DNA of 64,000 nt from Candidatus Nanoarchaeia archaeon (lineage in GTDB: Archaea > Nanobdellota > Nanobdellia > Woesearchaeales > GW2011-AR9): NCBI GenBank assembly GCA_035290865.1, contig DATDTM010000012.1, forward strand, positions 11,134 through 75,133. The letters run 5' to 3'. Within the stretch, counting starts at the first letter, position 1, and each line of letters starts with the position of its first letter. A model generated the notes under the pieces. It was not told the origin of the DNA and did no database searches. It was given only the letters and a program-made list of their open reading frames with translations. Positions 7,415 through 63,670 of the stretch are shown in pieces. Made by a program: the position numbers and the translations under genes.

Positions 7415-7512
7415 ATTTAGGCTAAATTCATCAGTTATTTTTATTCTTTGTTATTGAAAACAACGATTTTTAAAGAAATAAATATAAACCCTAAAGTAAT
7501 TAACTTTAAAAT

Positions 7513-7604
7513 CTGAATTTTCCACCAGTGTTGCACATGTGGCATAAGCTCCAGCGAGATTACATCACGTGGAAAATTCAGGGTCTGAGGAAACCGCGGT
7601 TTCC
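7513..7604. repeat. MITE-like hairpin repeat (family 4, inverted copy of 63185-63253) plus GGAAACCGCGGTTTCC hairpin
   Basis: CTGAATTTTCCAC...GTGGAAAATTCAG terminal inverted repeat. Near-identical reverse complement of 63185-63253. Confidence 0.7.
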
Positions 7605-7635
7605 GATTGACGAAAGTTCAAAAGATAACCAAAAA

Positions 7636-8253
7636 ATGGACCAACTTCACAAGCTCCGCAAATTGTACCGCCTGAAGAACATCGAAAGGGCCAATTCTGT
7701 CCTCAGCAGAAAAGAAAGTTCTGCCGAACATACCTGGAGCTGCCTGCTCCTGGCAGACTATTTTCTTAGCCAGGTTAAAAATAGCCAAATTAAAGCAAGT
7801 AAAGATAAAAGTAATCAAGATAAAGATCAGACTAAAGATAAAAAGCTGGACCGCTTGAAAATCTATGAATTATTGCTTTATCATGACCTCATCGAGATTG
7901 AAGCTGGTGATATTCCCATCCATCACGTAGAAGAAAGAAAGCATAAGCAAGAAAAAGAACAGAAAGCTTTTGCTAGTATGAAAAAGCAGTTTCCTGAAGT
8001 TCTTAAAGAAAAGTTTTCTCACTTATTTCAGGAATTTGAAGAGCAAAAAACTCCTGAAGCTAAATTCGCCCGGGCAGTGGACCGGATTGATGCCTTGATT
8101 CATGAACTGGACTACAAAAAAGATTGGAAGGGCTGGAACGAAGCCAAAGTCCGTCAGTTTTACCAGGAAGAGATCAAAGACGTTCCCATAATCAAAGCTG
8201 CTTTTGAGCAGATTTTAAGCTACGCCCGAGAGCAAGGTTACTTCAATCTTTAG
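7636..8253 (+). CDS. HD-domain phosphohydrolase (YfbR-like)
   Basis: H...HD...D metal motifs (HTWSC, LLYHDLIEIEAGD). Start moved to Met at 7636 because the upstream part of ORF 7528.. lies inside the MITE. Confidence 0.65.
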   Translation: MDQLHKLRKLYRLKNIERANSVLSRKESSAEHTWSCLLLADYFLSQVKNSQIKASKDKSNQDKDQTKDKKLDRLKIYELLLYHDLIEIEAGDIPIHHVEERKHKQEKEQKAFASMKKQFPEVLKEKFSHLFQEFEEQKTPEAKFARAVDRIDALIHELDYKKDWKGWNEAKVRQFYQEEIKDVPIIKAAFEQILSYAREQGYFNL

Positions 8254-9406: not shown

Positions 9407-11212
9407 ATGAAAAATTATCTCAAAAAGTATGAGAAGATTGATTTAAAATACAATCTGAAAACGCTTTGGGGTTTCGTCAAGAAATATCGCTGGTCTTTTT
9501 ATGGATTGATTTTCTTGATGCTATTAAACGAGATTTTTGCTTTTTTAGACAATTTTGCTTTTAAGTACTTAGTAGATAAGGGCACCTTGTTCAGCCAGGG
9601 GAATCTTTCTCCAGAAACTCTCTGGGAAATCTTATTGATCATTGTTTTCTTATTCATTCTGCTTAAGATCATCAGTGCTCTTTTCTGGTTCATCACCTTA
9701 AGGGTAGTCAACCTGATGGAAGCAAAAGTAATGAACGATATCGAAAAGAAATCGTTTTGGCATATTCTAACTTTATCCTACCGTTTCCACCTCAATAAGC
9801 GTACCGGATCTTTGATCTCCCAGTTTACCAGAGGGGTGAATAAGGTAGAAGCTTTTGGAGACGCCATCATCTTCAACTTTATCCCTGTATTCTTTCGTAT
9901 CTTGCTTTCAGTAGGAGTAATCTTCTATTTTGATATTGCTACATCTTTAGTAGTATTGATCACCTGTGTACTCTTCGCTATGGTGGGAATTTACTTTACC
10001 AACCTGCAAAAAGTACCTCAAAATATAGCTAATTACCATGAAGATAACCTAAAACAGAACCTTAGCGATGTTTTTCAAAATATCGAGACCGTGAAATATT
10101 TCGCTAAAGAGAAAGACACTTATCATTATTTTAGTACCCTCTCAGAAAAATTAAAAGTCGCCAGAAATAAGTTCTGGAATTATTTTTCCTGGCTCTCTGC
10201 AATAGACACTTTGGTTTTAGGGTTGGGCATCGCAGCTATCTTTTATTTCAGTTTTACCGGCTTGATGCAGGGAAGAATCAGTTTAGGCAGCATTACTTTA
10301 ATTTACGCTGCAGTTTGGAGATTAATCCCCATGCTCTTTAATTTAATGCATGGCTATCGCCAATTCATCCGTAGCAGCGTGGATGTAGATGCTTTATTTC
10401 AGATGTTCAAAGAAGAGAATGAAGTAATAGATTTACCTGAAGCAAAAAAGCTTCAGGTTGCTCAGGGAAAGATTGAATTCAAGAATGTTTCTTTCGCTTA
10501 TCCAGCCAGCGGAAGGGATAACCGAACCGTAATCAAAAATTTTAGTCATATTCTTAAGCCCAATACCAAAGTCGCTTTAGTTGGTCCCTCTGGTGGGGGA
10601 AAGACCACGGTCATCAAACTGCTCTACCGTCTCTTTGATCTTCCGGAAGGACAAATCTTAATTGATGAACAAGATATCCATCAAGTCGCCCAGGAATCAT
10701 TGCGCAATTCCATCAGTGTAGTTCCTCAAGAGCCGATTTTGTTTGATAATACTCTATGGTTTAATATTGCCTATGCTAACCCCCGTGCAGGCAAAAGAAA
10801 GGTTTGGCAGGCCATCAGGTTCGCTCAGCTGGATAAATTTATTGCCCAGCTACCTAAAAAAGAAAAGACTATTGTCGGAGAGAGGGGGGTAAAATTATCC
10901 GGAGGAGAAAAACAAAGAGTCAGTATTGCCCGAGCCATCCTTGCCGACAAAAAAATCCTGGTTTTAGACGAAGCTACCTCTGCTCTAGATTCAGAGACAG
11001 AAAAAGAGATTCAAGCTTGCCTAGAAAAGTTGATGAAAAATAGGACTACTATCATGATTGCCCATAGACTATCTACGATTATGAAAGCCGATGAGATTAT
11101 TGTCCTAGATCAAGGGCGGATTGTTGAGATAGGCACCCATGATCAGCTCGCTAATAAGCAGGGCGGGCTATACCAAAGATTATGGGGGTTGCAAAGAGGA
11201 GGAAGATTGTAA
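9407..11212 (+). CDS. ABC transporter, fused permease/ATPase (MsbA-like exporter)
   Basis: Six transmembrane segments followed by Walker A GPSGGGKTT, signature LSGGEKQRVSIARA and Walker B ILVLDEATS. Confidence 0.85.
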   Translation: MKNYLKKYEKIDLKYNLKTLWGFVKKYRWSFYGLIFLMLLNEIFAFLDNFAFKYLVDKGTLFSQGNLSPETLWEILLIIVFLFILLKIISALFWFITLRVVNLMEAKVMNDIEKKSFWHILTLSYRFHLNKRTGSLISQFTRGVNKVEAFGDAIIFNFIPVFFRILLSVGVIFYFDIATSLVVLITCVLFAMVGIYFTNLQKVPQNIANYHEDNLKQNLSDVFQNIETVKYFAKEKDTYHYFSTLSEKLKVARNKFWNYFSWLSAIDTLVLGLGIAAIFYFSFTGLMQGRISLGSITLIYAAVWRLIPMLFNLMHGYRQFIRSSVDVDALFQMFKEENEVIDLPEAKKLQVAQGKIEFKNVSFAYPASGRDNRTVIKNFSHILKPNTKVALVGPSGGGKTTVIKLLYRLFDLPEGQILIDEQDIHQVAQESLRNSISVVPQEPILFDNTLWFNIAYANPRAGKRKVWQAIRFAQLDKFIAQLPKKEKTIVGERGVKLSGGEKQRVSIARAILADKKILVLDEATSALDSETEKEIQACLEKLMKNRTTIMIAHRLSTIMKADEIIVLDQGRIVEIGTHDQLANKQGGLYQRLWGLQRGGRL

Positions 11213-11432
11213 CGAAAACTTGCCTGCTCCTGCCTAGGGTCACTAACGTTCTCAAGTTCTCTGACGAGAACTATCCGCGGGCTAAAGCCGGTGGCTTTAC
11301 GGCACTCGCTTACACGGGCAAGTCCCTAAAAAATTGGAAATTTTTGGGGCACAGAAAATCTTTGATTTTCTTGTGTTTCGGAACAGAAATTTAGCGCCCT
11401 AAAAGGTGGGGCTTTATACCCCGCTAAATTTC
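11209..11432. repeat. ~220-bp structured repeat (family 1), copy A
   Basis: About 95% identical to 39986-40188. Several perfect hairpins (GTTCTC..GAGAAC, GAAATTTAGCG..CGCTAAATTTC). Confidence 0.75.
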
Positions 11433-11456
11433 TGTAAAAGAATAAAGAAAATTAAT

Positions 11457-12741: not shown

Positions 12742-12801
12742 ATAACTATTGTAGTAAACATTTAAGATAATCTATAGAAGAATTTGGTGGAAATTATTGA
12801 A

Positions 12802-13470
12802 TTATTCAAAGTCCTCTTTAGGCTTAGATTCTACCACTAAACTCCAGGAATCTAATCTTCGATGATCAGATTTAAATGGGTATAAAAAATTGGTGTAGGT
12901 ATGCTCTTGGATATAAAATCCATTTTTACCCAATAACTGGTCTAAATCTTGATAGTTAAGTTTAACCACATGGGGATTTTCAAAACGCAATCTTAGATAG
13001 TTATATAATAGTTGAATAAGGGTACAATCTCCTCGGATACGCTCTTGAGGTATGGCGATGATCAAAGTTCCGTCTCTCTTCATTAATCGCTTTAAACTCA
13101 TTAAGAAAGTATTTCTATCTTTAATGTGTTCCAGTACATGAGATAAGATAATCACATCAAATCTTTCTTGATCAAAAAATTCACTATTAATCTCAAAAAA
13201 AGTAAAAGAAGGATATTTTTTTCTGGCATAATTTAGTGCGTAGGGATTAATATCCGCTCCGCAAAGATCAAAATTCTTTAAAGGGTACTTTTGATGAATA
13301 ATATTAAGGAAATAACCGGAATTGCATCCATAATCTAAAATTCTGACTTTTTCTTTATTATTTAACAAATAATTAATATGGTCTAATTCAGTTTTCCTAT
13401 AATGTAATATCGTCCTAGCCAGAAGTCCGGTTGTCCTCGTAATCAAAGTATAAGATTGGCCATATTTCAT
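12802..13470 (-). CDS. class I SAM-dependent methyltransferase
   Basis: Motif I ILDYGCNSGYF and motif II DVIILSHVLEHI. Confidence 0.7.
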   Translation of the reverse strand: MKYGQSYTLITRTTGLLARTILHYRKTELDHINYLLNNKEKVRILDYGCNSGYFLNIIHQKYPLKNFDLCGADINPYALNYARKKYPSFTFFEINSEFFDQERFDVIILSHVLEHIKDRNTFLMSLKRLMKRDGTLIIAIPQERIRGDCTLIQLLYNYLRLRFENPHVVKLNYQDLDQLLGKNGFYIQEHTYTNFLYPFKSDHRRLDSWSLVVESKPKEDFE

Positions 13471-21134: not shown

Positions 21135-22091
21135 ATGAGCCAAAAGAAACTCAGACCGAAATTTCCAAGCCTAGAATCAGATATCATCCTGGCTCCCATG
21201 GCTAAGATTACTGACCCTGCCTTTCGTAGCTTATGTAAAGAATACGGTTGCGGTTTGACTGTAACTGAAATGATTTCTGCTAATGATTTAGCTAGGAAAG
21301 ATAAACTGGCAATGAAAGAATTAGAACAACTGAAATCTGAATCCAAACCCAGATGCGTTCAATTGTATGGCCGGAATATAGACAATTTCATTACCGCTAC
21401 AAAAATGGTGCAAGGTTATGCAGAAGTTCTTGACTTAAATTTTGGCTGCCCTTATTATAAAATCATTGCCCAAGGTTTGGGCTGTGCCTTGATGGAACTT
21501 CCCGGAAAGATTAGGCAGATTGTTCAAAATGTAGTCGCAAATTCAAAAATACCCGTAACCTGCAAGATTCGCTTGGGGATGGATGCTAAAAATATTACCG
21601 TTTTAGAAGTAGCTAAGAAAGGTGAAGAATCTGGTGCAGTTATGATTACAGTCCATGCCCGCACCCAGAAACAAGAATATTCCGGAAAAGCAGATTGGAG
21701 TTGGATCAAGAAGGTTAAAGACACAGTCCAAATTCCAGTCTGCGGTAATGGAGATGTAAGAACTGTCGAAGATTATGTCAGATTGAAAAAAGAAACCGGC
21801 TGCGATTATGTCATGATTGGTCGAGGAGCGATCGGCAATCCATTTATTTTCAAACAGATAAATGAGTTCAATAAAACGGGAAAATATAAGATTCCTACCT
21901 CTGAAGAAAGAATCAAAGCTTTAAGAGAATATCTGGTTCTGGCAGAGAAGTTCGAAATAGAATTTGAACAGGTCAAGAAACAGGCGATGTATTTCTTAGA
22001 ACGAACTCTGCCGGATAAGCTGTTTAAAGCAGAGTTGGAAAAAGTTAAGAATAAGAAAGAGATGGGAATTCTACTAAACTCTTTTCTCTAA
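21135..22091 (+). CDS. dus: tRNA-dihydrouridine synthase (Dus), paralog 1
   Basis: ILAPMA..TD, LNFGCP, TVHARTQ and VMIGRGAIGNP motifs. Confidence 0.85.
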   Translation: MSQKKLRPKFPSLESDIILAPMAKITDPAFRSLCKEYGCGLTVTEMISANDLARKDKLAMKELEQLKSESKPRCVQLYGRNIDNFITATKMVQGYAEVLDLNFGCPYYKIIAQGLGCALMELPGKIRQIVQNVVANSKIPVTCKIRLGMDAKNITVLEVAKKGEESGAVMITVHARTQKQEYSGKADWSWIKKVKDTVQIPVCGNGDVRTVEDYVRLKKETGCDYVMIGRGAIGNPFIFKQINEFNKTGKYKIPTSEERIKALREYLVLAEKFEIEFEQVKKQAMYFLERTLPDKLFKAELEKVKNKKEMGILLNSFL

Positions 22092-22796
22092 TGAATCTTT
22101 GTTGCTAACTGCATCTTCCGACGACTCTACCCCGAGGACGCGGCCGTAGTTGTAGAAGTAGTAGACGCCGCCAAGGCTATTGTTGACGTAGTTGCCGCCA
22201 AGAACCAGCCAGCGCCCCTTCGCAACATTGTCTAAATCATTAACAATTCTAAGATGTATTTTACTTCCGATTCTCTTGCCAAAAGCATCTAAATATGATT
22301 CAGCACGCTCTTTCCCACCCAAGAAGGGAATCATCATTGGGTGAGCTAATGCTGTACTAACTTCAATATCACCATATTGGGAATTCATCAATTCTTGGTG
22401 GTCTCTGACAAAAACTGTCTTTTCGTCTTCCAAACCAAGCAATTTTAGGAATTCATCCTGAGGCATGAGCCCTGCACCATTACTCAATCCATTCTGATAA
22501 ACTTTTTTGAGATTTTCTAAGTTTGAAAAGTAATTCGAGCCATGATCATAAACAACCACGGCTTTACCGGCTCTGTTTCTGCCGGTAACTATAATACTCG
22601 GTTGAGTGAAATCATTCTGCCACAGATAATCATTGCAATTAGGAGTAATCTTGGCATCAACCAGTTCTGGTATGAACCAAGGCTGAGCTTTTGCATCAAC
22701 ACATTCAGTATAAGCTTTAAGAATGCCGTCTATTTCAAGTCTTTCAAAGACTTGAACATCTTGATTTCTGACAATCGGGGTGGTTATGGTTTGCAT
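22074..22796 (-). CDS. hypothetical protein, MQTITT paralog A
   Basis: ~85% aa identity to 23600..24520; contains a GC-rich codon patch; no known domain. Confidence 0.55.
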   Translation of the reverse strand: MQTITTPIVRNQDVQVFERLEIDGILKAYTECVDAKAQPWFIPELVDAKITPNCNDYLWQNDFTQPSIIVTGRNRAGKAVVVYDHGSNYFSNLENLKKVYQNGLSNGAGLMPQDEFLKLLGLEDEKTVFVRDHQELMNSQYGDIEVSTALAHPMMIPFLGGKERAESYLDAFGKRIGSKIHLRIVNDLDNVAKGRWLVLGGNYVNNSLGGVYYFYNYGRVLGVESSEDAVSNKDSLEKRV

Positions 22797-22968
22797 TTTA
22801 GTTTTACCTTTTTGGTTTTTATGATTTTTTTTATTATCTTTAAACAGGTTTAATGGAGGTTAAAAATTGGGCCTGTTTATAAACGTTTTGATGTTTGTTA
22901 CTATGAAATGGTCTCTTTTTGAGTAGTTTCGGGGAAAATTTTAAATATCCCCCCGATTACACCAGACC

Positions 22969-23262
22969 ATGGTCAACCAAACTATTAACTCTCTCAAAAA
23001 AATAATTGTACCCATCCTTAAGAAGAATGATGTAGTTAAAGCAGGAATTTTTGGTTCTTACGCCAGAGGAGAACAGAAGAAAAGCAGTGATATAGACCTG
23101 TTGATAAAATATGGCCGGAAGAAAAAGAGTTTGTTAGACCTGGTTCATTTAAAATATGCTTTAGAAGATAAATTGAACCAAAAAGTGGATATTTTAACCT
23201 ATAAATCAATAAATAATCTGTTTAAGAAAGAGATTCTGGACTCAGAGGTTAAAATATTATGA
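22969..23262 (+). CDS. MNT-type nucleotidyltransferase antitoxin
   Basis: GIFGSYARGE...SDIDLLI minimal NTase motif; overlaps the downstream HepT gene by 4 nt. Confidence 0.75.
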   Translation: MVNQTINSLKKIIVPILKKNDVVKAGIFGSYARGEQKKSSDIDLLIKYGRKKKSLLDLVHLKYALEDKLNQKVDILTYKSINNLFKKEILDSEVKIL

Positions 23263-23591
23263 AAAGCGATTTAAAATACCTTCAGCACATTCTGGGATCG
23301 ATTGACCTTATCGATAATTTTGTTTTGGGGCTGGATAAGAACAAATTTTCCAAGAATATAGAAAAACAGTTTGCAGTTATACGGGGATTAGAGATAATTG
23401 GTGAAGCGGTAAAGAATTTGTCCGAAGAAACAAAAATAAATCATCCAGAAATAGTCTGGCGAGAGATTGCCGGAACACGAGACATTTTAATTCATTCTTA
23501 CTTTAGTGTGGATTTGGACTTAGTATGGGATATTATCCAGAGTGATTTGCCCAAATTAAAAACACAGATCAAAATAATCTTAAAAAAATAA
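23259..23591 (+). CDS. HepT-like toxin (DUF86/HEPN)
   Basis: R-x4-H-x-Y motif (RDILIHSY) near the C-terminus. Confidence 0.75.
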   Translation: MKSDLKYLQHILGSIDLIDNFVLGLDKNKFSKNIEKQFAVIRGLEIIGEAVKNLSEETKINHPEIVWREIAGTRDILIHSYFSVDLDLVWDIIQSDLPKLKTQIKIILKK

Positions 23592-23599
23592 GAAATAAA

Positions 23600-24520
23600 T
23601 TAATTCTTCTTAGTCAATAACTGGTAGGCTTCCGGCGAGATCTGATCCTGCCTGATAACAACTAGACCATTGCCAACATCGTTGCCTTTGCCCAGAAGAG
23701 ATTCTAAAGATGAAACGGGATTTTTCAGCGCGTCCTCCTTCGGAGGAACGATAACCGGGCTCGTCGAGTCACTTCGTTCGTGACTTTGCTGCGACAAAGC
23801 TTCGTTCGCCACCGACGACGACTCTACCCCGAGGACACGGCCGTCGTTGCTGAAGCTGTAGCTGCCGCCAAGGTCGCCGCCAAGGTTGTAGTAGATGTAG
23901 TCGCCAAGGACCAGCCAGCGCCCCCTGGGAACTTCGCTTAAATCATTAGTAATTCCTAAATACATTTTACTTCCGATTTTTTTACCGAAAACATCTAAAT
24001 ATTGTTCAGCACGATCTTTCCCACCCAAAAAAGGAATTATCATAGGATGGGCCAAAGCTTTGCTGACTTTAATATCGCCACGAGCAGAATTCATCAATTC
24101 TTGGTGGTCTCTGACAAAAATCGTCTTTTCATCATTCAAACCAAGCAATTTCAAAAATTCTTCCTGAAGCATGAGCCCTGCACCATTACTCAATCCATTC
24201 TGGTAAACTTTTTTGAGATTTTCTAAGTCTGAAAAGTAATTCGAGCCATGGCTATAAACGACCACGGCTTTTCCGGCTCTGTTTCTGCCGGTAACTATGA
24301 TACTCGGTTGAGTGAAACCATTCTGCCACAAATAATCATTGCAATTAGGAGTAATCTTGGCATCAACCAGTTCTGGTATGAACCATGGCTGGCATTTTGC
24401 ATCAACACATTCAGTATAAGCTTTAAGAATACCGTCTGTTTCAAGTCTTTCAAAGACCTGAAGGTCTTGGTTTCTGACGCTGACAATCGGGGTGGTTATG
24501 GTTTGCATTTTTGGGTTCAC
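23600..24520 (-). CDS. hypothetical protein, MQTITT paralog B (C-terminal extension of uncertain reality)
   Basis: ~90% DNA identity to paralog A over the shared part. An extra ~60-aa tail lies over a GC-rich hairpin-rich stretch. Confidence 0.5.
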   Translation of the reverse strand: MNPKMQTITTPIVSVRNQDLQVFERLETDGILKAYTECVDAKCQPWFIPELVDAKITPNCNDYLWQNGFTQPSIIVTGRNRAGKAVVVYSHGSNYFSDLENLKKVYQNGLSNGAGLMLQEEFLKLLGLNDEKTIFVRDHQELMNSARGDIKVSKALAHPMIIPFLGGKDRAEQYLDVFGKKIGSKMYLGITNDLSEVPRGRWLVLGDYIYYNLGGDLGGSYSFSNDGRVLGVESSSVANEALSQQSHERSDSTSPVIVPPKEDALKNPVSSLESLLGKGNDVGNGLVVIRQDQISPEAYQLLTKKN

Positions 24521-24716
24521 CTTTTTGAGTTTTGTAAATTAATTTTTAAATTTGTTTAATAAAAGATTAAAAAGAGGGTGGATTTATAAATGTTTTGGTT
24601 GTTTTACTACCCGATAGTAAATATCAATTCAGGGAGCAGATAACAACCTAAAAAGAGGTATCCGGTTACCTAATTGTCGGTAAAGCTTAAATATCAGTTC
24701 TGTTTCAAACAAGATA

Positions 24717-25331
24717 ATGATTACCAAAGAACAAATCAAAATTTTAGGTGTCTTCAACAAAGACCTCTTCACTAGTTTTACTTTCCGCCAGATTAAGGAG
24801 CAAAGCCAGCAGAAATCAAATAATGTCGTCCAGATAGCCCTAAAAGAATTCCAGAAACAAGATTTAGTAACTATAAAGAAAATTGGGAATGTTAAAACAT
24901 ACAACTTAAATTTAGACAACAATCTCACTTTATCTTATCTTAATCTGATCAATGAATTAGAAATCCGCCGTAAAATATTTCCCAAAGAGATCTTAGCCGA
25001 GATTAAAAAAAAGATCGAGAAGAAAAGCGAGTTCTTTATTTTAATTGTTTTTGGAAGCTATGCTAAAAATAAAGCTACAGAAAAATCTGATTTAGATCTA
25101 GCAGTTATTATCGAATCCGAACCAACAAAAAAAGAAATAGCCCCTTTATTAGAAACAATAAAAAGAAGAGAACTCAAACCCATAGATTATCATCTCTTCA
25201 CCAGAAGTGAGTTTTTAGAAATGCTTAAAGCAGATTATGAAAATATGGGCAAACAAATTTATAAAAACCATCTTATTTATTATGGTTATATCGAATTTTG
25301 CAATCTAATCCGGGGTATAAAAAATGGATGA
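24717..25331 (+). CDS. nucleotidyltransferase with N-terminal wHTH
   Basis: FGSYAKNKATEKSDLDLAVI NTase motif; overlaps the downstream HEPN ORF by 8 nt. Confidence 0.65.
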   Translation: MITKEQIKILGVFNKDLFTSFTFRQIKEQSQQKSNNVVQIALKEFQKQDLVTIKKIGNVKTYNLNLDNNLTLSYLNLINELEIRRKIFPKEILAEIKKKIEKKSEFFILIVFGSYAKNKATEKSDLDLAVIIESEPTKKEIAPLLETIKRRELKPIDYHLFTRSEFLEMLKADYENMGKQIYKNHLIYYGYIEFCNLIRGIKNG

Positions 25332-25809
25332 TAAATCCGAATTATATCTGCAGAGAGCAGAAAATGAACTGGTTGTTGCCCAGATGCTATTTCAAATCTC
25401 AAGTAATACTTTTCTCCAAAAAGAGCAATTTAAACTTGAAAAAGAATTTACTTTCTACAGCACCGTCATTGGTCATTCCTATTATTGTATCTTTTATTCT
25501 GCAAAAGCGATCTTAATCCAAAATGGGATTAAAACAGAAGCTCCTGAAGAACACAGAAAAACTTTAGAAGCCTTTGAGGACTTCTTAGTCAAATCTGGAA
25601 GACTAGATGTAGAATTATTGAAGATCTACAAAAAGATGGTAATTAGAGCAGAAGAACTATTAGAAATATTTTCTAGAGAAAAAGGAAAAAGAGGAGAATT
25701 CACTTACCGAAAACTACCACAGGCAAATTTAGACCCGGCCCAAGAATCTTTAGATAATGGGTTATTATTTTTTAAGAACATTAATGCAGTTTTAAGAAAG
25801 ATTAACTGA
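25324..25809 (+). CDS. HEPN-domain protein (partner of the upstream NTase)
   Basis: All-helical protein of HEPN-like length and gene order. Confidence 0.55.
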   Translation: MDDKSELYLQRAENELVVAQMLFQISSNTFLQKEQFKLEKEFTFYSTVIGHSYYCIFYSAKAILIQNGIKTEAPEEHRKTLEAFEDFLVKSGRLDVELLKIYKKMVIRAEELLEIFSREKGKRGEFTYRKLPQANLDPAQESLDNGLLFFKNINAVLRKIN

Positions 25810-25816
25810 TTACAAA

Positions 25817-26761
25817 ATGCCTCAACTTCCAAAACTTTCATCCGATACCATCCTCGCCCCCATGGCCGGCGTAACCGATGTAGCTTTTCGTGTGCTCTGC
25901 AGAAGGTCTGGCGCAGGATTAACTTGTACTGAAATGATTTCCGCTAATGCCCTCGCTAGAAGTAACCAAGCCACTTTAAAACTGATTAATCTGGCAGAGG
26001 AAGAGAAACCGCGAGTAATCCAGCTCTTCGGCCAGAATACTGATTGCCTGATTAAATCCGCACAATTCATAGAACAGAATAATCTTTGCGAAATCATCGA
26101 CCTAAACTTCGGCTGTCCGGCAGAAAAAATCATCCGTCAAGGTGCAGGCAGTGCTTTGTTGGAACGACCAAACAAGATTAAAGAGATTATAGAGGCAGTT
26201 ACTAAAGCGGTAAAGATTCCCGTAACTTGTAAATTAAGATTAGGGATCAGAACCAGTAACATTAATATCTTAAAAGTAGCTAAGATCTGTGAAGAAGCAG
26301 GCGCAAGTATGCTCACCATCCATGCCCGGACTCAGAACCAAGGTTATACCGGAACCGCGGATTGGTCTTGGATCAAGAAAGTTAAAGAAGCTGCTAAGAT
26401 TCCTGTTTGCGGTAATGGTGATGTCAGAACAGTTGAAGATTATGTGCGTATGAAAAAAGAAACCGGCTGTGATTATGTCATGATTGGGAGAGGCGCGATA
26501 GGCAATCCTTATTTGTTCAAACAAATCAGCGATTATAATAAAACCGGAAAATATTCTGAGAGAACTAAATCCCAGCAGATGGAAGATTTCTTTGCCTATC
26601 TTAAATTAGCCAAAAGATATAAAGTAGATTTCCAATATATCAGATTTCAGGCTATGGCCTTTACTAAAGGGCTGCCTGACTCTGCCCAGCTAAGATTGAA
26701 GTTGAGCAAGGTAAAGAATATAAAAGAGATTGAAAGAGTGATTGTACAGAAAGATTTATAA
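25817..26761 (+). CDS. dus: tRNA-dihydrouridine synthase (Dus), paralog 2
   Basis: Same Dus motifs; ~55% aa identity to paralog 1. Confidence 0.85.
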   Translation: MPQLPKLSSDTILAPMAGVTDVAFRVLCRRSGAGLTCTEMISANALARSNQATLKLINLAEEEKPRVIQLFGQNTDCLIKSAQFIEQNNLCEIIDLNFGCPAEKIIRQGAGSALLERPNKIKEIIEAVTKAVKIPVTCKLRLGIRTSNINILKVAKICEEAGASMLTIHARTQNQGYTGTADWSWIKKVKEAAKIPVCGNGDVRTVEDYVRMKKETGCDYVMIGRGAIGNPYLFKQISDYNKTGKYSERTKSQQMEDFFAYLKLAKRYKVDFQYIRFQAMAFTKGLPDSAQLRLKLSKVKNIKEIERVIVQKDL

Positions 26762-32500: not shown

Positions 32501-33073
32501 ATGAAAATCAAAGAGATCGAAGTAGAAATCAGAGGCAGACTGGATTCTAAAAGCTACGCTGAACTAAAACTGTTTTTAGAAAAAAATGGTACTCACCACG
32601 CCAGCCAAGAACGGGAAATGTATTTATTACAGGATTATCCAGGTTATACCCCGGATTTTGTCGACCGTCCGATGGACATTAGGTTGCGCAATACCAACGG
32701 CCAGTGTGAAATTATGATGAAATGCGCTGTCCAAGGCGCACGCGAAGAAGTATCTCTAGAACTGAAAGATTCAAATTTGGAAAAAGCTAAGAAAGTTCTG
32801 AAAGGTTTAGGCTGCGCCAAGGCCATTTGGATGCACCGCCTAAAAGTGATTTATAAATACAAAGATATAGAATGGTCACTGGTGATTGCGCCCAACGATA
32901 TCCGCTATTACGAGGCAGAGTTGGTCGTGGCTAATGATCAGGAAGTAGCTCAAGCAAACCAAAGATTGGTCCAAGTGGCAACTGAACTCAAACTAGAAGT
33001 GTTAGACGATACCGGCACAAGAGCTTTAATTGAGAAACTGGATAAAGAAGCTAATAAACCGGTCCAACTTTAA
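32501..33073 (+). CDS. CYTH-domain (triphosphate tunnel) protein
   Basis: EIEVEIRGRL N-terminal beta-strand motif. Start trimmed from 32399 because the upstream part overlaps the tRNA. Confidence 0.65.
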   Translation: MKIKEIEVEIRGRLDSKSYAELKLFLEKNGTHHASQEREMYLLQDYPGYTPDFVDRPMDIRLRNTNGQCEIMMKCAVQGAREEVSLELKDSNLEKAKKVLKGLGCAKAIWMHRLKVIYKYKDIEWSLVIAPNDIRYYEAELVVANDQEVAQANQRLVQVATELKLEVLDDTGTRALIEKLDKEANKPVQL

Positions 33074-33075
33074 AT

Positions 33076-33229
33076 GTCAAAATGCTCGCGACCACCACCG
33101 GTCAGAGACCGGTGGCATGCTCGCCCTTCGGGCTCGGGTCGCTCACATCATAAGAGCTGAGCATTTTGACTTAGGAATGTAACTAGTGTTTAAACCACTG
33201 GTGAAAACACCAGTGGAATGACTTTATTC
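33076..33229. repeat. MITE-like element (family 2; TIR GTCAAAATGCTC) plus CCACTGGTG hairpin module
   Basis: 12-bp perfect terminal inverted repeats at 33076/33170. Core CACCACCGGTC-AGA-GACCGGTGG is shared with the 40191 and 63120 copies. Confidence 0.7.
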
Positions 33230-33291
33230 AAAACCAACAGCTTTTTAAACTATCCGAATATTCTTAATCTAATAAAAAGAGGTGATTAAAA

Positions 33292-33498
33292 ATGTGCATT
33301 TATGGATGGAAAGGATTAGTATTTTGTCTGTTATTGCTGCTAAACGTTTTTGTCTGGCCTTTATGGCAAGGCGTAGATGGGTGGATTGCATACTTAGCAG
33401 TATTAGGAGTGCTCTGGTGCCTATTAACTTTGATTTGGCCAAAATGGTTCAATGATAATGGTTATAGTGTAAAAGCCCCAGCTAAAAAGAAGAAATAA
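33292..33498 (+). CDS. small membrane protein (hypothetical)
   Basis: 68 aa, two TM helices; AGAGGTGA Shine-Dalgarno upstream. Confidence 0.35.
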   Translation: MCIYGWKGLVFCLLLLLNVFVWPLWQGVDGWIAYLAVLGVLWCLLTLIWPKWFNDNGYSVKAPAKKKK

Positions 33499-33554
33499 AT
33501 CTTTCTTTTTTTTCTCTTTTTCTAGATTATTTTTATAAAGAAGTAACCATTTCC

Positions 33555-33755
33555 CTTTCTAAGCCTCATGTTGTTTGCCAGCGGGGCATACTCAGAAACA
33601 AGTTTCTGGTCGCCGCGCTGTCTCGTGCTGCTCGCCAGCGTGGCACAATCCGGTACTGCGGCGGATAGAATCAAGCCGAATCTCGAATCCGGATGGAAAA
33701 CCGCTCCCGCAAGGGACTCTCGGTTCAAATGAGAGATAAGAAAAACTTATTTTTC
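33555..33755 (+). ncRNA. candidate structured ncRNA, identity unknown
   Basis: ~55% GC island in a 33% GC genome. TTTTTATAAA TATA-like box ~25 bp upstream; oligo-T (TTATTTTT) at the 3' end. Several hairpins (CAGAAAC/GTTTCTG, CTCTCGGTTCAAATGAGAG). Confidence 0.35.
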
Positions 33756-39930: not shown

Positions 39931-39985
39931 TACTACAAGTTTGTAGTATATTAAAGATTTTTTTTCTCCAAACGTTAGAGTTATA

Positions 39986-40188
39986 GTAACGAAAACTTGC
40001 CTGCTCATGCCTAGGGTCACTAACGTTCTCAAGTTCTCTGACGAGAACTATCCACGGGCTAAAGCCCGTGGCTTTACGACACTCGCTTACACTGGCAAGT
40101 CCCTGAAAAATTGAAAATTTTTGGGGCACAGAAAATCTTTGATTTTCTTGTGTTTCGGAACAGAAATTTAGCGCCCTAAAGGGTGGAG
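39986..40188. repeat. ~200-bp structured repeat (family 1), copy B
   Basis: About 95% identical to 11209-11412. The terminal hairpin is truncated by the adjacent MITE. Confidence 0.75.
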
Positions 40189-40190
40189 CT

Positions 40191-40410
40191 GTCAAAATGC
40201 TCGCGACCACCACCAGTCACATTCTGTCGTTGCACTCCGAAGTTGCTTAACAGCAACGACTGGTGGCATGCCCGCCCTTCGGGCTCGGGTCGCTCGCAGA
40301 ATGAGAGCTGAACATTTTGACTGAGAAGTGCGCCACCAATCAAATCAAGTTGGAACTTTGTTCCTCGTGAGTTGCTTAACAGCAACGATTGGTGGAAACG
40401 ACTTTATTAT
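40191..40410. repeat. composite MITE (family 2 with internal insertion + family 3 hairpin module); left arm of the inverted pair flanking lysS
   Basis: GTCAAAATGCTC TIRs at 40191/40331, then a CCACCAATC..GATTGGTGG module. Reverse complement is found at 42041-42198. Confidence 0.75.
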
Positions 40411-42040: not shown

Positions 42041-42198
42041 AATAAAGTCGTTTCCACCAATCGTTGCTGTTAAGCAACTCACGAGGAACAAAGTTCCGAC
42101 TTGATTTGATTGGTGGTGCACTCCTCAGTCAAAATGCTCAGTTCTCATTCTGCGAGCGACCCGAACCCGCAGGCGAGTATGGTCGCGAGCATTTTGAC
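42041..42198. repeat. composite MITE, right arm (inverted orientation) flanking lysS
   Basis: Reverse complement of 40332-40410 followed by the family-2 element with a shorter core. Confidence 0.75.
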
Positions 42199-45565: not shown

Positions 45566-45850
45566 GGGTCAGCTAGGCTGGCGCGCTAGCCCTGCGTTGT
45601 TACCGTGAATGAGCTTTACACGGAGCCGAAGCCTGATAAAAGGGCCAGTTTGGTTTTGTTGGTCCTGATCCGCTTTGCAGACAGCTTGTCCTTTGGGATG
45701 GACTTGCTGGGAATCTGGTCAGATCCGGAAGGAAGCAGCCATAACCTGTAGGTTTCATGTTCAGAGGGTCGCAAGCTCGAGAGGCTTTCAGGAACAAACC
45801 AATGGAGCTATATTGGTTCGATTGTCGGGCCTGCCCCTAAAGTTTCTTTT
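45566..45850 (+). ncRNA. signal recognition particle RNA (7S RNA)
   Basis: GGUCAGAUCCGGAAGGAAGCAGCCAUAACC matches the helix-8 core of 4.5S/7S RNA (GGUCAGGUCCGGAAGGAAGCAGCC). GC-rich island with a TATA-like box ~30 bp upstream. Confidence 0.75.
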
Positions 45851-47978: not shown

Positions 47979-48195
47979 GAAGTATTCTTGATTTTAACCG
48001 AGTATAGAAATAAATTAGAAGATTAGTTATAGACGATTTTGAAAAACTATTCAAAATCGTCTTAAAGGACTTTAGTTTAAGCCCAAACTTTTATGGTTAA
48101 AGAGGTTATTCAAAGTCCTCTATAATCGAATCGTATTAATTCTTAAACATTTACAAAAGCGCAACATTTAAATATACCAACTATTTAAACGCATT

Positions 48196-52224: not shown

Positions 52225-52987
52225 TTATAATCTTAAACAGAAATATAATTCTCTTAGTTATAAACTTACCTTACCCCTCTCCGCTAGTAAAAGAAGAAAA
52301 ATGTCAGTTCGGACGCTGTTGCAAGACCACCACAAATGCTTTTTTTCTCCTCTTCTCGGAATAATTTGCTTAGAAAAAATAAGTGTTTCTCTTTCTCAGT
52401 AGCTTAACACGTTTGTTTTTCCTCACTTTTTCTCTTCTTTTTTAGTCAAAAAAGAGAGCTCACGCTGGTTAGGATGCTACCACTACCCATTTCTTACAGT
52501 TTGTATACTCGATGACATAAATAATTATAGGGGACTTTGAATAACCTCCTACGGACAACACAATTGAGCCTATTCTAAGTCCTCTAAGACTATTTTGAAT
52601 ATATCAAATGCGAAGTGGTATTTGAGACTATGAGACCATGTCGAATATAGGTTTTTCAAAATCGTCTATACAGAATAATATGTCATCTCGTAATATACCG
52701 AAGGACATATAGCAAAGCGTTTGCTATATGTCCTTCGTACACAAAGTGAAAAAATTATTTCACTTGTGCACAGATGAAGTAGTTTCTTCATCTAGTATAT
52801 AGTGTCGAAGAATTATTGTTCAATATTTATGTTCGCTACTATATGTCGTCGAAAGAGGAAAAAGATACACAATACAAAAGCGGAAAACACTGTGACCATA
52901 CAGCCACCGCCCACCCGACTAAGCTTTATAGTTTCTCTTACAGCCTGTCAACTTTATGTAAAGAAGAGATAATGAGTTGGTTTAATA

Positions 52988-62874: not shown

Positions 62875-63108
62875 AATAATTAAAATGAATGAGTACAGAT
62901 ATTCAATTAACCTAAAAAAGGCTTTTCTAATCCCTGAACAATAAAATGTATTTTCTCTTACCACCAAAAATTCGGAGACATTTATGTTTTTTGGATCGGT
63001 CATTAAAAACAGGTGGACTGGGTTTTTATCTTTTCCAAGAGATGGTTGAATATAATCAAAATGATTTAATTTAAACTAAATATTTTCATAAAAATTTATC
63101 TGTCAATC

Positions 63109-63253
63109 GGAAACCGCCCACCACCGGTCACAGACCGGTGGCATGCTCGCTCCCTTCGGTCGCTCGGGGCGGTTTCCTCAGACCCTGAATTTTCCACGAA
63201 ATGCAATCTCGCTGAAGCTTATGCCACCAGTGTAACACTGGTGGAAAATTCAG
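63109..63253. repeat. MITE-like composite (GGAAACCGCC TIR element with family-2 core + family 4)
   Basis: GGAAACCGCC...GGCGGTTTCC inverted repeats enclosing CACCACCGGTCACAGACCGGTGGCATGCTCGC. Followed by CTGAATTTTCCAC...GTGGAAAATTCAG. Confidence 0.7.
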
Positions 63254-63670
63254 ATTTTACTGGCCATCTTATTATCTGGCCTTTCAACTTCTAATACAAT
63301 TTTTTGCTTGTTCTTTGAGAGATATTCTTTCAGTAAGTCTGTTCCATTCCTTTTTCCCTAAATTCTTCTTTTATTGCCAAATATTCCATAACCCATAAAT
63401 CTCCAAAATCCCAATTAGTAACTATTGCAACTATTTTTTATCTTTAATAACAATGGAGAAAAAAGAGTATCGCTTGTTTTTAATCAGCTTTTTCTGTAAA
63501 TCCATTGTTCTTCTTTCGTCTGAAGGGAAAGAAGATTCATATATCCCCCACACTCCTCTAAATTCTGCTGAATTCTCGTCTCTTATTTTGATGAATCCCA
63601 TCTTGCAAGTGATAAGATTTAATCTTTTATTTATTGGGCTATTTATTGAGTAATATGAAGATGAGCCGAA

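Follow-up and report, generated by a model that had tools for sequence, protein, structure and literature searches.

Palindromic repeats of a Nanoarchaeia genome as probable gene-less relatives of an IS200-group insertion sequence

Palindrome-associated transposable elements (PATEs) were defined in the haloarchaeon Haloquadratum walsbyi as gene-less derivatives of insertion sequences (ISs) of the IS200/IS605 family (Dyall-Smith et al., 2011; PMC3119063). Elements such as HqIRS46 are described as lacking terminal inverted repeats (TIRs) and target-site duplications, as having a transposase-less length, and as possessing similar near-terminal palindromes in direct orientation at ends that are related to those of IS605-type transposons; deletion between the palindromes gives rise to terminal-only forms of 52 bp, and other small elements insert into the palindromes (PMC3119063). 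In IS608 of Helicobacter pylori, the subterminal hairpins lie on one strand and the four bases 5' of each hairpin foot serve as a guide; at both ends, guide base 1 pairs with position -3 of the cleavage site and guide base 2 with position -4, and positions -4 and -2 of the cleavage sites are occupied by T and A, respectively (PMC3201880, PMC5934647). In Geobacillus stearothermophilus, minimal ISGst mini elements keep the ends of a co-resident IS200/IS605 element, their target and end motifs covary with the DNA guides, and mobilization in trans by one TnpA has been proposed (Meers et al., 2023; PMC10055086). Here we describe five palindromic elements in a 64,000-nt stretch of DNA (the window; positions 11,134 to 75,133 of contig DATDTM010000012.1, assembly GCA_035290865.1) from a Candidatus Nanoarchaeia archaeon. 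Very probably these elements are PATEs that carry no genes and that derive from, or are related to, an insertion sequence of the IS200 group. We assign them to the IS200/IS605 family because their subterminal hairpins are in direct orientation, their ends are asymmetric, and their insertion is not accompanied by a duplication.

All the features of the H. walsbyi PATEs listed above recur in the family of the window elements, including terminal-only versions (about 52 bp in H. walsbyi) and small elements nested in the palindromes (PMC3119063). The two sets differ in their hosts, which are haloarchaeal in one case and a DPANN archaeon (window proteins are labelled Ca. Nanoarchaeia) in the other, and no sequence resemblance was seen in the part of the published set compared. 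In that same comparison, the partner element here is of the IS200 group, with tnpA alone and no tnpB seen, the right end of the window elements lies within a conserved multi-stem junction, and the longer spacer is found at the 3' end, whereas it is found at the 5' (target) end in the published PATEs (PMC3119063). With IS608 the window elements share the subterminal hairpins of one strand with 4-nt guides 5' of the hairpin feet, insertion 3' of a short target without duplication, and a mutual similarity of target and right-end motifs (TTGAA and TTGAC here; TTAC and TCAA in IS608); unlike IS608, they are gene-less and known here from sequence alone. ISGst mini elements often encode TnpB/IscB guide RNAs (PMC10055086), whereas no tnpB, iscB or recognizable guide-RNA family was found here. 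The window elements are a new family of this already known PATE/IS200-IS605 type; a literature search returned no account of these repeats or of PATEs in DPANN archaea.

The anatomy of the elements, their boundaries, the covariation of their hairpins and one precise insertion polymorphism are directly observed. A preliminary description of the window had placed five palindromic copies at 7513-7604, 33076-33229, 40191-40410, 42041-42198 and 63109-63253 and had interpreted them as MITE-like elements (MITE, miniature inverted-repeat transposable element) with differing TIRs. All five copies are present, although their exact ends had to be shifted slightly (Table 1); a repeat finder links them to one another, and sensitive BLAST detected no sixth copy in the window. 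The hairpin modules named at that time are likewise real, since CCACCRGT-N(3-30)-ACYGGTGG occurs three times in the window versus 0.00 times expected from shuffled sequences. The limits of the mobile unit became apparent from a contig of a closely related strain (L001; ENA ERZ27254763). Its match to the window, 99.97% identical over 3.7 kb, breaks off after position 33075 and continues from position 33227, so that exactly 151 bp are missing; the empty site reads AAAT/TTCAAAACC (here and below, a slash marks a junction). Because of this empty site, we define the mobile unit as 33076-33226; it runs from GTCAAAATG... to ...AATGACTTTA and contains the GTCAAAATGCTC...GAGCATTTTGAC domain together with a second hairpin. 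Among 24 non-redundant copies with unrelated flanks, similarity always extends from GTCAA to a terminal A that is followed by TT.

A second, partial pair of filled and empty sites is provided within the window by the two copies of a repeat that we call R208 (Table 1). The homology between R208a and R208b stops precisely at GTCAAAATG, where the copy at 40191 starts, and 7/8 of the bases that follow this copy (TTATAACC) match the continuation of R208a (TTATACCC); the insertion point corresponds to the loop of the 3' hairpin of R208b. A target-site duplication is found neither in the clean L001 pair nor in the partial R208 pair.

Classical MITEs would be TIR-bounded units moved by a DDE-type transposase that recognizes double-stranded TIRs and duplicates the target. 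The window elements do contain perfect 12-13-bp inverted repeats (GTCAAAATGCTC/GAGCATTTTGAC and CTGAATTTTCCAC/GTGGAAAATTCAG), and they are short, multicopy, intergenic and present in both orientations; prokaryotic MITEs such as Correia and Sulfolobus SM1-SM4, and the pneumococcal BOX elements, are similarly short, multicopy, intergenic, strongly folding and modular. Classical MITEs and BOX elements have TIRs and usually target duplications, and the window elements have neither. The inverted repeats starting with GTCAAAATGCTC and CTGAATTTTCCAC, formerly taken for termini, are genuine, but they form internal stems: the present/absent segment reaches 56 nt past GAGCATTTTGAC, and no inverted-repeat relationship exists between its true ends, GTCAAAATG... 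and ...GACTTTA. Furthermore, the putative TIR sequences of the two types of elements found in the window (type A and type B; see below) are unrelated, yet the hairpins, the guides and the cleavage motif are common to both types, and homologous ends are found in an element of the IS200 type, whose family has no TIRs. We therefore regard a classical MITE as hardly credible. The broader proposal of a recently active, non-autonomous mobile family that resides in intergenic regions in both orientations is borne out, with strain L001 lacking precisely the 33076 copy.

Complete copies of the family measure about 135-151 nt and share one layout. On the strand reading GTCAA, a 19-nt end is followed by hairpin 1 (9-bp stem, 3-nt loop), the tetranucleotide CATG, a small hairpin, a return strand closing two long stems, a linker, hairpin 2 and a 10-11-nt end. 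Hairpins 1 and 2 are similar to each other and are in direct orientation; their 9-bp stems are of the CCACNNGTN type and are separated from the ends by 19 nt and 10-11 nt. What had been described as modules are two subterminal transposase-binding hairpins and a structured core, and most differences between copies consist of deletions between the two hairpins and insertions in the hairpin loops. The type A copy at 33076 and the type B copy at 63102 can be aligned over their full length with about 69% identity (sensitive BLAST).

The hairpin stems occur in nine distinct, fully complementary variants with compensatory changes at 6/9 pairs; in 18 hairpins from 11 elements, 97.5% of the positions pair, and the covariation score was reached by 0/500 shuffles. 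Among the 19 perfect 9-bp hairpins with at least four G/C found in 278 kb of DPANN sequence, 15 are element hairpins. The subterminal hairpins are selected as structures. The right end is set in a conserved multi-stem junction. Its outer stem is long, its inner stem surrounds the right hairpin, and a small hairpin, whose loop is mostly of the UUCG type, completes it. Both types, A and B, maintain the entire junction by wholly different yet complementary sequences, and the autonomous IS described below likewise keeps the inner stem. The elements as a whole fold far more strongly than shuffled sequence (z -3.6 to -7.4).

Structures of this kind raise the question of whether the elements are structured non-coding RNAs or cis-regulatory sites (terminators, small RNAs, protein-binding hairpins) retained by the host because of what they do. 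The very stable predicted folds (z to -7.4), the covarying stems and the maintenance of the larger stems across type A, type B and the IS by wholly different complementary sequences all fit this explanation, as do the relic found at the same position in two genomes (L014 and L020) whose flanks are 87% identical, and the location of 3/5 window copies upstream of a gene in sense orientation. However, the elements matched no Rfam family, are present or absent between near-identical strains, reside in unrelated gene contexts that include sites between convergent genes, and in one case lie inside another repeat. Their heavy decay, seen as the loss of hairpins and as remnants of 39-52 nt, speaks against purifying selection at single loci, and transposition as single-stranded DNA explains the hairpin covariation equally well. 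We thus consider a host function as the reason for the existence of these elements very unlikely; some copies may be put to secondary use by the host. In searches against Rfam 15, the elements gave no match, and a relaxed search of positions 32900-33400 yielded chance-level scores only (E >= 1.4). Inspection by eye for a bulge-helix-bulge intron, a tRNA-like structure, C/D or H/ACA small RNAs or a ribozyme revealed no such motifs, and no Rfam matches to them were obtained. As for carriers of an IS110 bridge RNA or a TnpB guide RNA, neither a recombinase nor a tnpB gene was found beside any copy or the IS, and Rfam again had no match; we retain this possibility only within the improbable reading that follows. 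The junction and the nested hairpins are more than plain transposition would require. Rather speculatively, the junction might be a working device, for instance by exerting single-stranded DNA or RNA control over cleavage of the right end or specifying an element-encoded small RNA, while the hairpin loops serve as landing pads for smaller nested modules; we give this a low probability. If true, such landing in the loops would represent a nested parasitism like that of the Haloquadratum SMR-A elements in a minimal-genome lineage.

The view of the elements as PATEs leads to predictions about target recognition, and here a one-sided target, guide/target covariation, homology of both ends to a multi-site IS, and co-occurrence with this IS in the same samples are direct observations. 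On the GTCAA strand, TT follows the element in 24/24 copies, T is found at +4 in 17/24 and A at +5 in 20/24; the opposite flank is only weakly biased. Read on the complementary strand, hereafter the top strand, the left end comes immediately after the motif TT[A/T]NAA, the TT of which is invariant in the 24 copies while its other positions are strongly biased. In this orientation, the right-end guide CATG faces the cleavage motif TGAC and satisfies 3/3 pairs; like the IS608 sites, this motif has T at -4 and A at -2. The third of these pairs, guide base 4 with position -1, is our own reading of the complementary IS608 tetranucleotides AAAG/TTAC and GAAT/TCAA. At the left end, where reverse-complementing the four bases that follow hairpin 2 gives the guide, the three pairs match the flank in 12/24, 21/24 and 23/24 copies, respectively. 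When flanks were shuffled among copies, the first and second pairs had p values of 0.0011 and 0.00015, respectively, values that overstate independence since the copies within a subfamily are kin.

Guide and target change together. On the GTCAA strand, copies with ...GG-AATG have TTCA flanks, with A at +4 in 4/4, whereas copies with AAAC, AAAT or AAAA have T at +4 in 17/19; all three AAAA copies are flanked by TTTTA. A T-to-A change of the guide base (A to T at the third of the four plus-strand bases) is thus matched by a shift of the flank. In top-strand terms, the targets TTGAA, TATAA and TAAAA are accompanied by the guides CATT, ATTT/GTTT and TTTT. Only the last base distinguishes the target of the 33076 copy, TTGAA, from its right-end motif, TTGAC, as is usual for the IS200/IS605 family. 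Reading the elements on the GTCAAAATG strand would give spacers of 19 and 10 nt, equal to the IS608 numbers, but the left flank is then not conserved and the guide pairs fail (ACCA vs a variable flank; TGCA vs TTTA). We take the complementary strand as the active one because the guide rule and flank conservation fail on the GTCAAAATG strand.

A cognate IS200/IS605 element, which the preliminary description had suggested looking for, was found in the form of related ISs that encode a Y1 transposase. A scan of viral contigs with hairpin 1 plus CATG retrieved a contig (L057) carrying a 141-aa open reading frame (ORF) that matches the Pfam family Y1_Tnp (IS200-like transposase; E 3.5e-13, 50 bits versus a cutoff of 23); 16 nt past the stop codon of this tnpA gene lies CATG-CCACCAGTC-TGT-GACTGGTGG-TTCTTGAC. 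At E <= 1e-5, this TnpA has 146 relatives, mostly on contigs of 0.6-1.5 kb. Among the proteins deposited at NCBI, an "IS200/IS605 family transposase [Nanoarchaeota archaeon]" (P0018) is 70% identical to it, and a "transposase [Candidatus Woesearchaeota archaeon]" belongs to the more distant P0104 cluster. Two further contigs (L063, L064) contain complete elements with the structure TATAA/TTCTTTAGATTT-CCACTAGTC-loop-GACTAGTGG ... tnpA ... CATG-hairpin-T(T/A)(C/G)TTGAC/.

The closest view of such an IS is offered by the TnpA P0041, which is 62% identical to the L057 protein (Pfam Y1_Tnp, E 4.9e-16) and is carried on 14 short contigs, eight of which we read. Its IS is 666 bp long (TACCATCGATTT...GAGCTATTGAC), has no adjoining tnpB, and occurs with seven distinct left flanks, all ending in TATAA, and four distinct right flanks. 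Its left guide ATTT faces ATAA and its right guide CATG faces TGAC, both in accordance with the IS608 rule. The right end of the 666-bp IS reads AGCGA-GGCTTG-TGAGCCGAAGGCGAA-CATG-hairpin-T-CAAGCC-GAGCTATTGAC, and that of the 33076 copy reads ...GCGACC-CGAGCCCGAAGGGCGAG-CATG-hairpin-T-GGTCGC-GAGCATTTTGAC; 51/69 nt are identical in the same layout, and the stem enclosing the hairpin is kept by compensatory changes (GGCTTG/CAAGCC vs GCGACC/GGTCGC). At the left ends, 28/42 positions are identical. The ends of the window elements are hence related to those of ISs that encode a Y1 transposase, the 666-bp IS as well as L057, L063 and L064. All samples from which this IS was recovered in ERZ4903072, ERZ27254763, ERZ4903055 and the ANAN16-1 series also gave contigs of the window genome, and the IS is present in JGI 3300025317, a source of other PATE copies, as well. 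From its ends, and tied as it is to the same metagenome samples, the 666-bp IS is likely to be the autonomous partner of the window elements. Five of its contigs (L066, L067, L068, L071, L072) have a common sequence for at least 130 nt past the right end (GTTTTACTATTT...) while their left flanks differ, and three others have unrelated right flanks; the common flank could reflect a longer composite unit with a second, downstream boundary or an assembly-graph effect.

The Y1 transposase also brings to mind host repeats of the repetitive extragenic palindrome (REP) or bacterial interspersed mosaic element (BIME) kind, which are serviced by a domesticated, single-copy REP-associated transposase (RAYT, or TnpA-REP). 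The palindromes here are short (21 nt), multiple and intergenic, and RAYTs belong to the same Y1 HUH superfamily and have a guide-type architecture in common with the present system. Against such repeats stand the bounded unit with two hairpins in direct orientation, where alternating REP clusters would be expected, and the lack of a conserved 5' tetranucleotide of the GTAG type. Moreover, the tnpA gene resides within a 666-bp unit found at several sites, as its seven distinct left flanks attest, and this is the behavior of an IS rather than of one domesticated gene. Host repeats attended by a RAYT are accordingly a very improbable explanation in our eyes.

Several observations weigh against the interpretation of the elements as PATEs with an IS200-group partner. 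Pfam searches and neighbor annotations revealed no transposase gene in the window, in about 9 kb upstream or in about 8.7 kb downstream of it, and no flank of the 666-bp IS matches the window. The only clean pair of filled and empty sites is that of L001, a strain that diverges downstream of the insertion site; since TCAAAA is present at both junctions, this pair leaves the boundary ambiguous within 6 nt. We consider the ambiguity resolved because the 24 copies share the same start and end points; the near-repeat GTCAAAA/TTCAAAA of the 33076 junctions is not present at other copies. The R208 pair fixes the left boundary, and on the right 7/8 bases match. The left-end spacer measures 10-12 nt and the right-end spacer 8 or 18-19 nt, compared with 19 and 10 nt in IS608, the hairpins have perfect 9-bp stems, in contrast to the imperfect IS608 palindromes with their extrahelical T, and the third guide base is T here and A in IS608. 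In addition to the kinship of the copies mentioned above, the commonest subfamily (guide GTTT) pairs guide base 1 with position -3 in only 4/13 copies.

Neighboring sequences were inspected further. No additional PATE copy or IS is present in the approximately 9 kb upstream and 8.7 kb downstream of the window. Clustering of ORFs from 278 kb of archaeal sequence (the window and 27 loci) retrieved only syntenic genes as recurrent neighbors of the elements, and a regular expression for the Y1 motif found no match in 448 kb. A helicase-like gene that adjoins two copies was considered as a candidate and is not a transposase. For the four copies other than that at 33076, the public contigs that carry the flanking genes are identical to the window, so that further empty sites were not encountered.

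According to the mechanism that we propose, the active top strand would be the complement of the strand reading GTCAAAATG...; on that complement, each complete copy presents, in this order, the TT[A/T]NAA target, the left boundary, a spacer of 10-11 nt with the 4-nt guide as its last bases, the left hairpin (stem of 9 bp, loop of 3-4 nt), the structured core, the CATG guide, the right hairpin, a 19-nt tail ending in TTGAC, and the right boundary. A Y1 (HUH) transposase supplied in trans would bind both hairpins on single-stranded DNA, the guide tetranucleotides would base-pair with the cleavage sites, and the element would be excised as a single-stranded circle and pasted 3' of a target motif without duplication ("peel and paste"). 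The ends in common suggest that the TnpA of the 666-bp IS, or a close relative of it, mobilizes the window copies in this single-strand manner. Judged by their parts, the copies at 33076-33226 and 63102-63254 should still be competent and that at 40191-40406 probably so, whereas those at 42043-42198 and 7512-7611 are presumably dead because each is without the right hairpin.

The family is not confined to the window. Scanning of 185,579 species-representative genomes and of JGI metagenomes with the 19-nt end GTCAAAATGCTCGCGACCA yielded ten loci in metagenome-assembled genomes (MAGs; one labelled Methanosarcinales, the others Woesearchaeota, Nanoarchaeota or "archaeon"), about 16 metagenome contigs, and a few evident chance matches in G+C-rich bacteria. 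The spread beyond the window that the preliminary description had wished to see examined thus amounts to 24 non-redundant copies from DPANN MAGs and metagenome contigs; one extra minimal copy in L050 was found later. The copies range from 39 to 290 nt in length and their ORFs are merely incidental, so that they are too short to encode a transposase. Hairpin 1 is exactly missing in some of them (42043-42198 in the window, and L050). Terminal-only copies of 39-52 nt, consisting of the 19-nt end, one hairpin and the 10-11-nt end, are found in L014, L012, L056, L039, L049 and as the second copy in L050; their probable origin is the loss of the sequence between the two hairpins, which are direct repeats. 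Both the copies that lack one hairpin (42043-42198, 7512-7611) and the terminal-only copies are products of decay. The decayed copy that L014 and L020 have in the same position and the empty site in L001 led us to conclude that the family holds old relics as well as strain-level polymorphism.

Long insertions of small hairpins in the loops of hairpins 1 and 2 or in a side arm distinguish the 40191-40406 copy and those in L009, L016, L018 and L037. These nested modules have the form CAC-stem-6-nt loop-stem-GTG (L016:3131-3420; L037:5342-5630; L009; L018; window 40191-40406). An identical 25-mer hairpin module, CAAGATGAAGAAACTACTTCATCTG, is found at different internal positions in L016 and L037, which represent two different genomes, and AGTTGCTTAACAGCAACGA is present in both hairpin loops of the 40191 copy. 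The nested hairpins resemble the Haloquadratum SMR-A elements, whose targets are PATE palindromes.

A typical type A copy also resides on a 52.5-kb contig (L008; CAYJXA010000010.1) of a MAG labelled "uncultured Methanosarcinales archaeon" with 42% G+C; either a DPANN contig was mis-binned here or the element is shared across lineages, and comparisons of a few of the ORFs favored neither. Scans of viral contigs with the 19-mer and with the type B end returned nothing or chance matches; the left-end 18-mer matched a phage gene four times by chance and also picked up what may be an end fragment. The latter (L062:1735-1752; IMGVR_UViG_3300012666_000586), GGTGGAAACGACTTTA/TTATAAG on a viral contig with 31% G+C, lies just past the end of a gene; it is left-end-like and has the expected flank, and the rest of an element is not recognizable.

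With the assignment to the PATEs, the repeats of this DPANN genome gain a concrete and testable mechanism, the limits and the active strand of the elements are corrected, and the repeats become linked to a specific small IS200-type element of Nanoarchaeota/Woesearchaeota. Filled and empty sites can be used as strain markers, and the variation in guides and targets constitutes a small comparative dataset on DNA-guided target choice by archaeal IS200/IS605 elements; the existing understanding of how such elements work is unchanged. There are practical consequences as well: the elements break assemblies, several public contigs ending within them, and they mislead gene callers, as in the case of the HD-domain gene considered below. 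The public assemblies L003, L004, L024, L025 and L031 end inside or at the edges of elements (window positions 33075, 33146, 40340, 42136 and 63141), and the repeats thus appear to fragment metagenome assemblies.

Table 1. Elements and associated features in the window (positions refer to the 64,000-nt stretch; "GTCAA" gives the strand that reads GTCAA..., "Top" the transposon top strand).
Feature	Positions	GTCAA	Top	Length	Remarks
Type A PATE (A33)	33076-33226	+	-	151 nt	complete
A33 right-end tail	33076-33094			19 nt	plus-strand reading; reverse complement ...GAGCATTTTGAC; cleavage motif TGAC
A33 right subterminal hairpin	33095-33115				CCACCGGTC-AGA-GACCGGTGG (plus-strand reading)
A33 CATG guide	33116-33119
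A33 left subterminal hairpin	33195-33216
A33 left-end spacer	33217-33226				top-strand guide CATT
A33 target motif	33227-33232		-		plus strand TTCAAA
A33 target, top strand	33227-33231				TTGAA, directly 5' of left end
Type A PATE (A40)	40191-40406	+	-	216 nt
Type A PATE (A42)	42043-42198	-	+	156 nt	target motif TAAAA 42038-42042
Type B PATE (B63)	63102-63254	+	-	153 nt	complete; flank TTTTA 63255-63259
Type B PATE (B7)	7512-7611	-	+	100 nt	target motif TAAAA 7507-7511
Repeat R208a (+)	11206-11436			~230 nt	uninterrupted, structured; paralogous "empty site" for A40: ...GGTGGGGCT/TTATACCCC
Repeat R208b (+)	39983-40190				second repeat copy; 95% identical to R208a over 208 nt

The individual copies in the window illustrate both integrity and decay (Table 1). 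The target motif of A33 is also present in the empty site of strain L001. In A40, both subterminal hairpins have expanded loops that hold nested small hairpins. A42 is probably immobile because its right subterminal hairpin has been deleted exactly (GCGACCA/TACTCGCC). B63 has the two hairpins and the CATG guide as in type A, whereas its outer stems differ (GGAAACCGCC/GGCGGTTTCC and CTGAATTTTCCAC/GTGGAAAATTCAG). B7, whose left hairpin is imperfect and which a deletion (GGAAACCGC/GGTTTCC) has deprived of the inner module together with the right subterminal hairpin, is a decayed relic. It had been thought to be the exact reverse complement of the sequence starting at 63185, and is in fact 92% complementary to it over 91 nt; the inner hairpin module is not present in it.

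B7 overlaps two upstream start candidates of an HD-domain ORF, GTG at 7528 and ATG at 7537, both of which lie inside the inserted element. Public gene calls for the HD gene conflict, giving either 238 aa from 7537 or 205 aa from 7636, and the Pfam homology begins at residue 45 of the ORF starting at 7528, which corresponds to nucleotide 7660. Judged from these positions, a true start at 7636, as had been proposed, is plausible.

The repeat R208 (11206-11436; 39983-40190 with a remnant after 40406) is itself non-coding and strongly structured (z = -5.0), and it has no match in Rfam. It contains a hairpin, GGCACAGAAAATC-TTTG-GATTTTCTTGTGT, that is like the small hairpins nested in some elements elsewhere. 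At the polymorphic 33076 site, the window (33227-33621) and strain L001 (L001:3685-4027) diverge directly downstream of the element: about 70 nt are approximately 90% identical, a small gene of 68/69 aa that cannot be aligned follows, and similarity later returns to 96.8%. A variable locus or a recombination breakpoint coincides with the element at this site.

The window has a G+C content of about 37% and an archaeal gene set that includes Alba, S17e, SecE, Spt5, eIF2-gamma, the CCA-adding enzyme, Cdc48 and a class II LysRS. Six window proteins are identical to NCBI entries of the series HLD72138-HLD72200, which belong to a 127-kb contig and are labelled Candidatus Nanoarchaeia archaeon. Contigs near-identical to the window are present in many ENA, JGI and Logan metagenome assemblies. 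Its sole match to an Rfam family is an archaeal signal recognition particle RNA at 45566-45837 on the plus strand (RF01857; 113 bits, E 6.8e-25). A block of paralogous genes or segments at 21135-26761, with 300-nt repeats of 76-80% identity and shorter ones (22180/23886, 21545/26212, 22768/24480), suggests tandemly duplicated gene cassettes. Finally, four copies of a motif consisting of a small hairpin followed by TATAA (GAGG-TTATTCAAAGT-CCTCTATAA) are located on the minus strand at 2188-2233, 12775-12820, 48102-48126 and 52524-52548; at least the first of them lies between convergent ORFs, and the motif might serve in termination or regulation or might represent one more tiny repeat.

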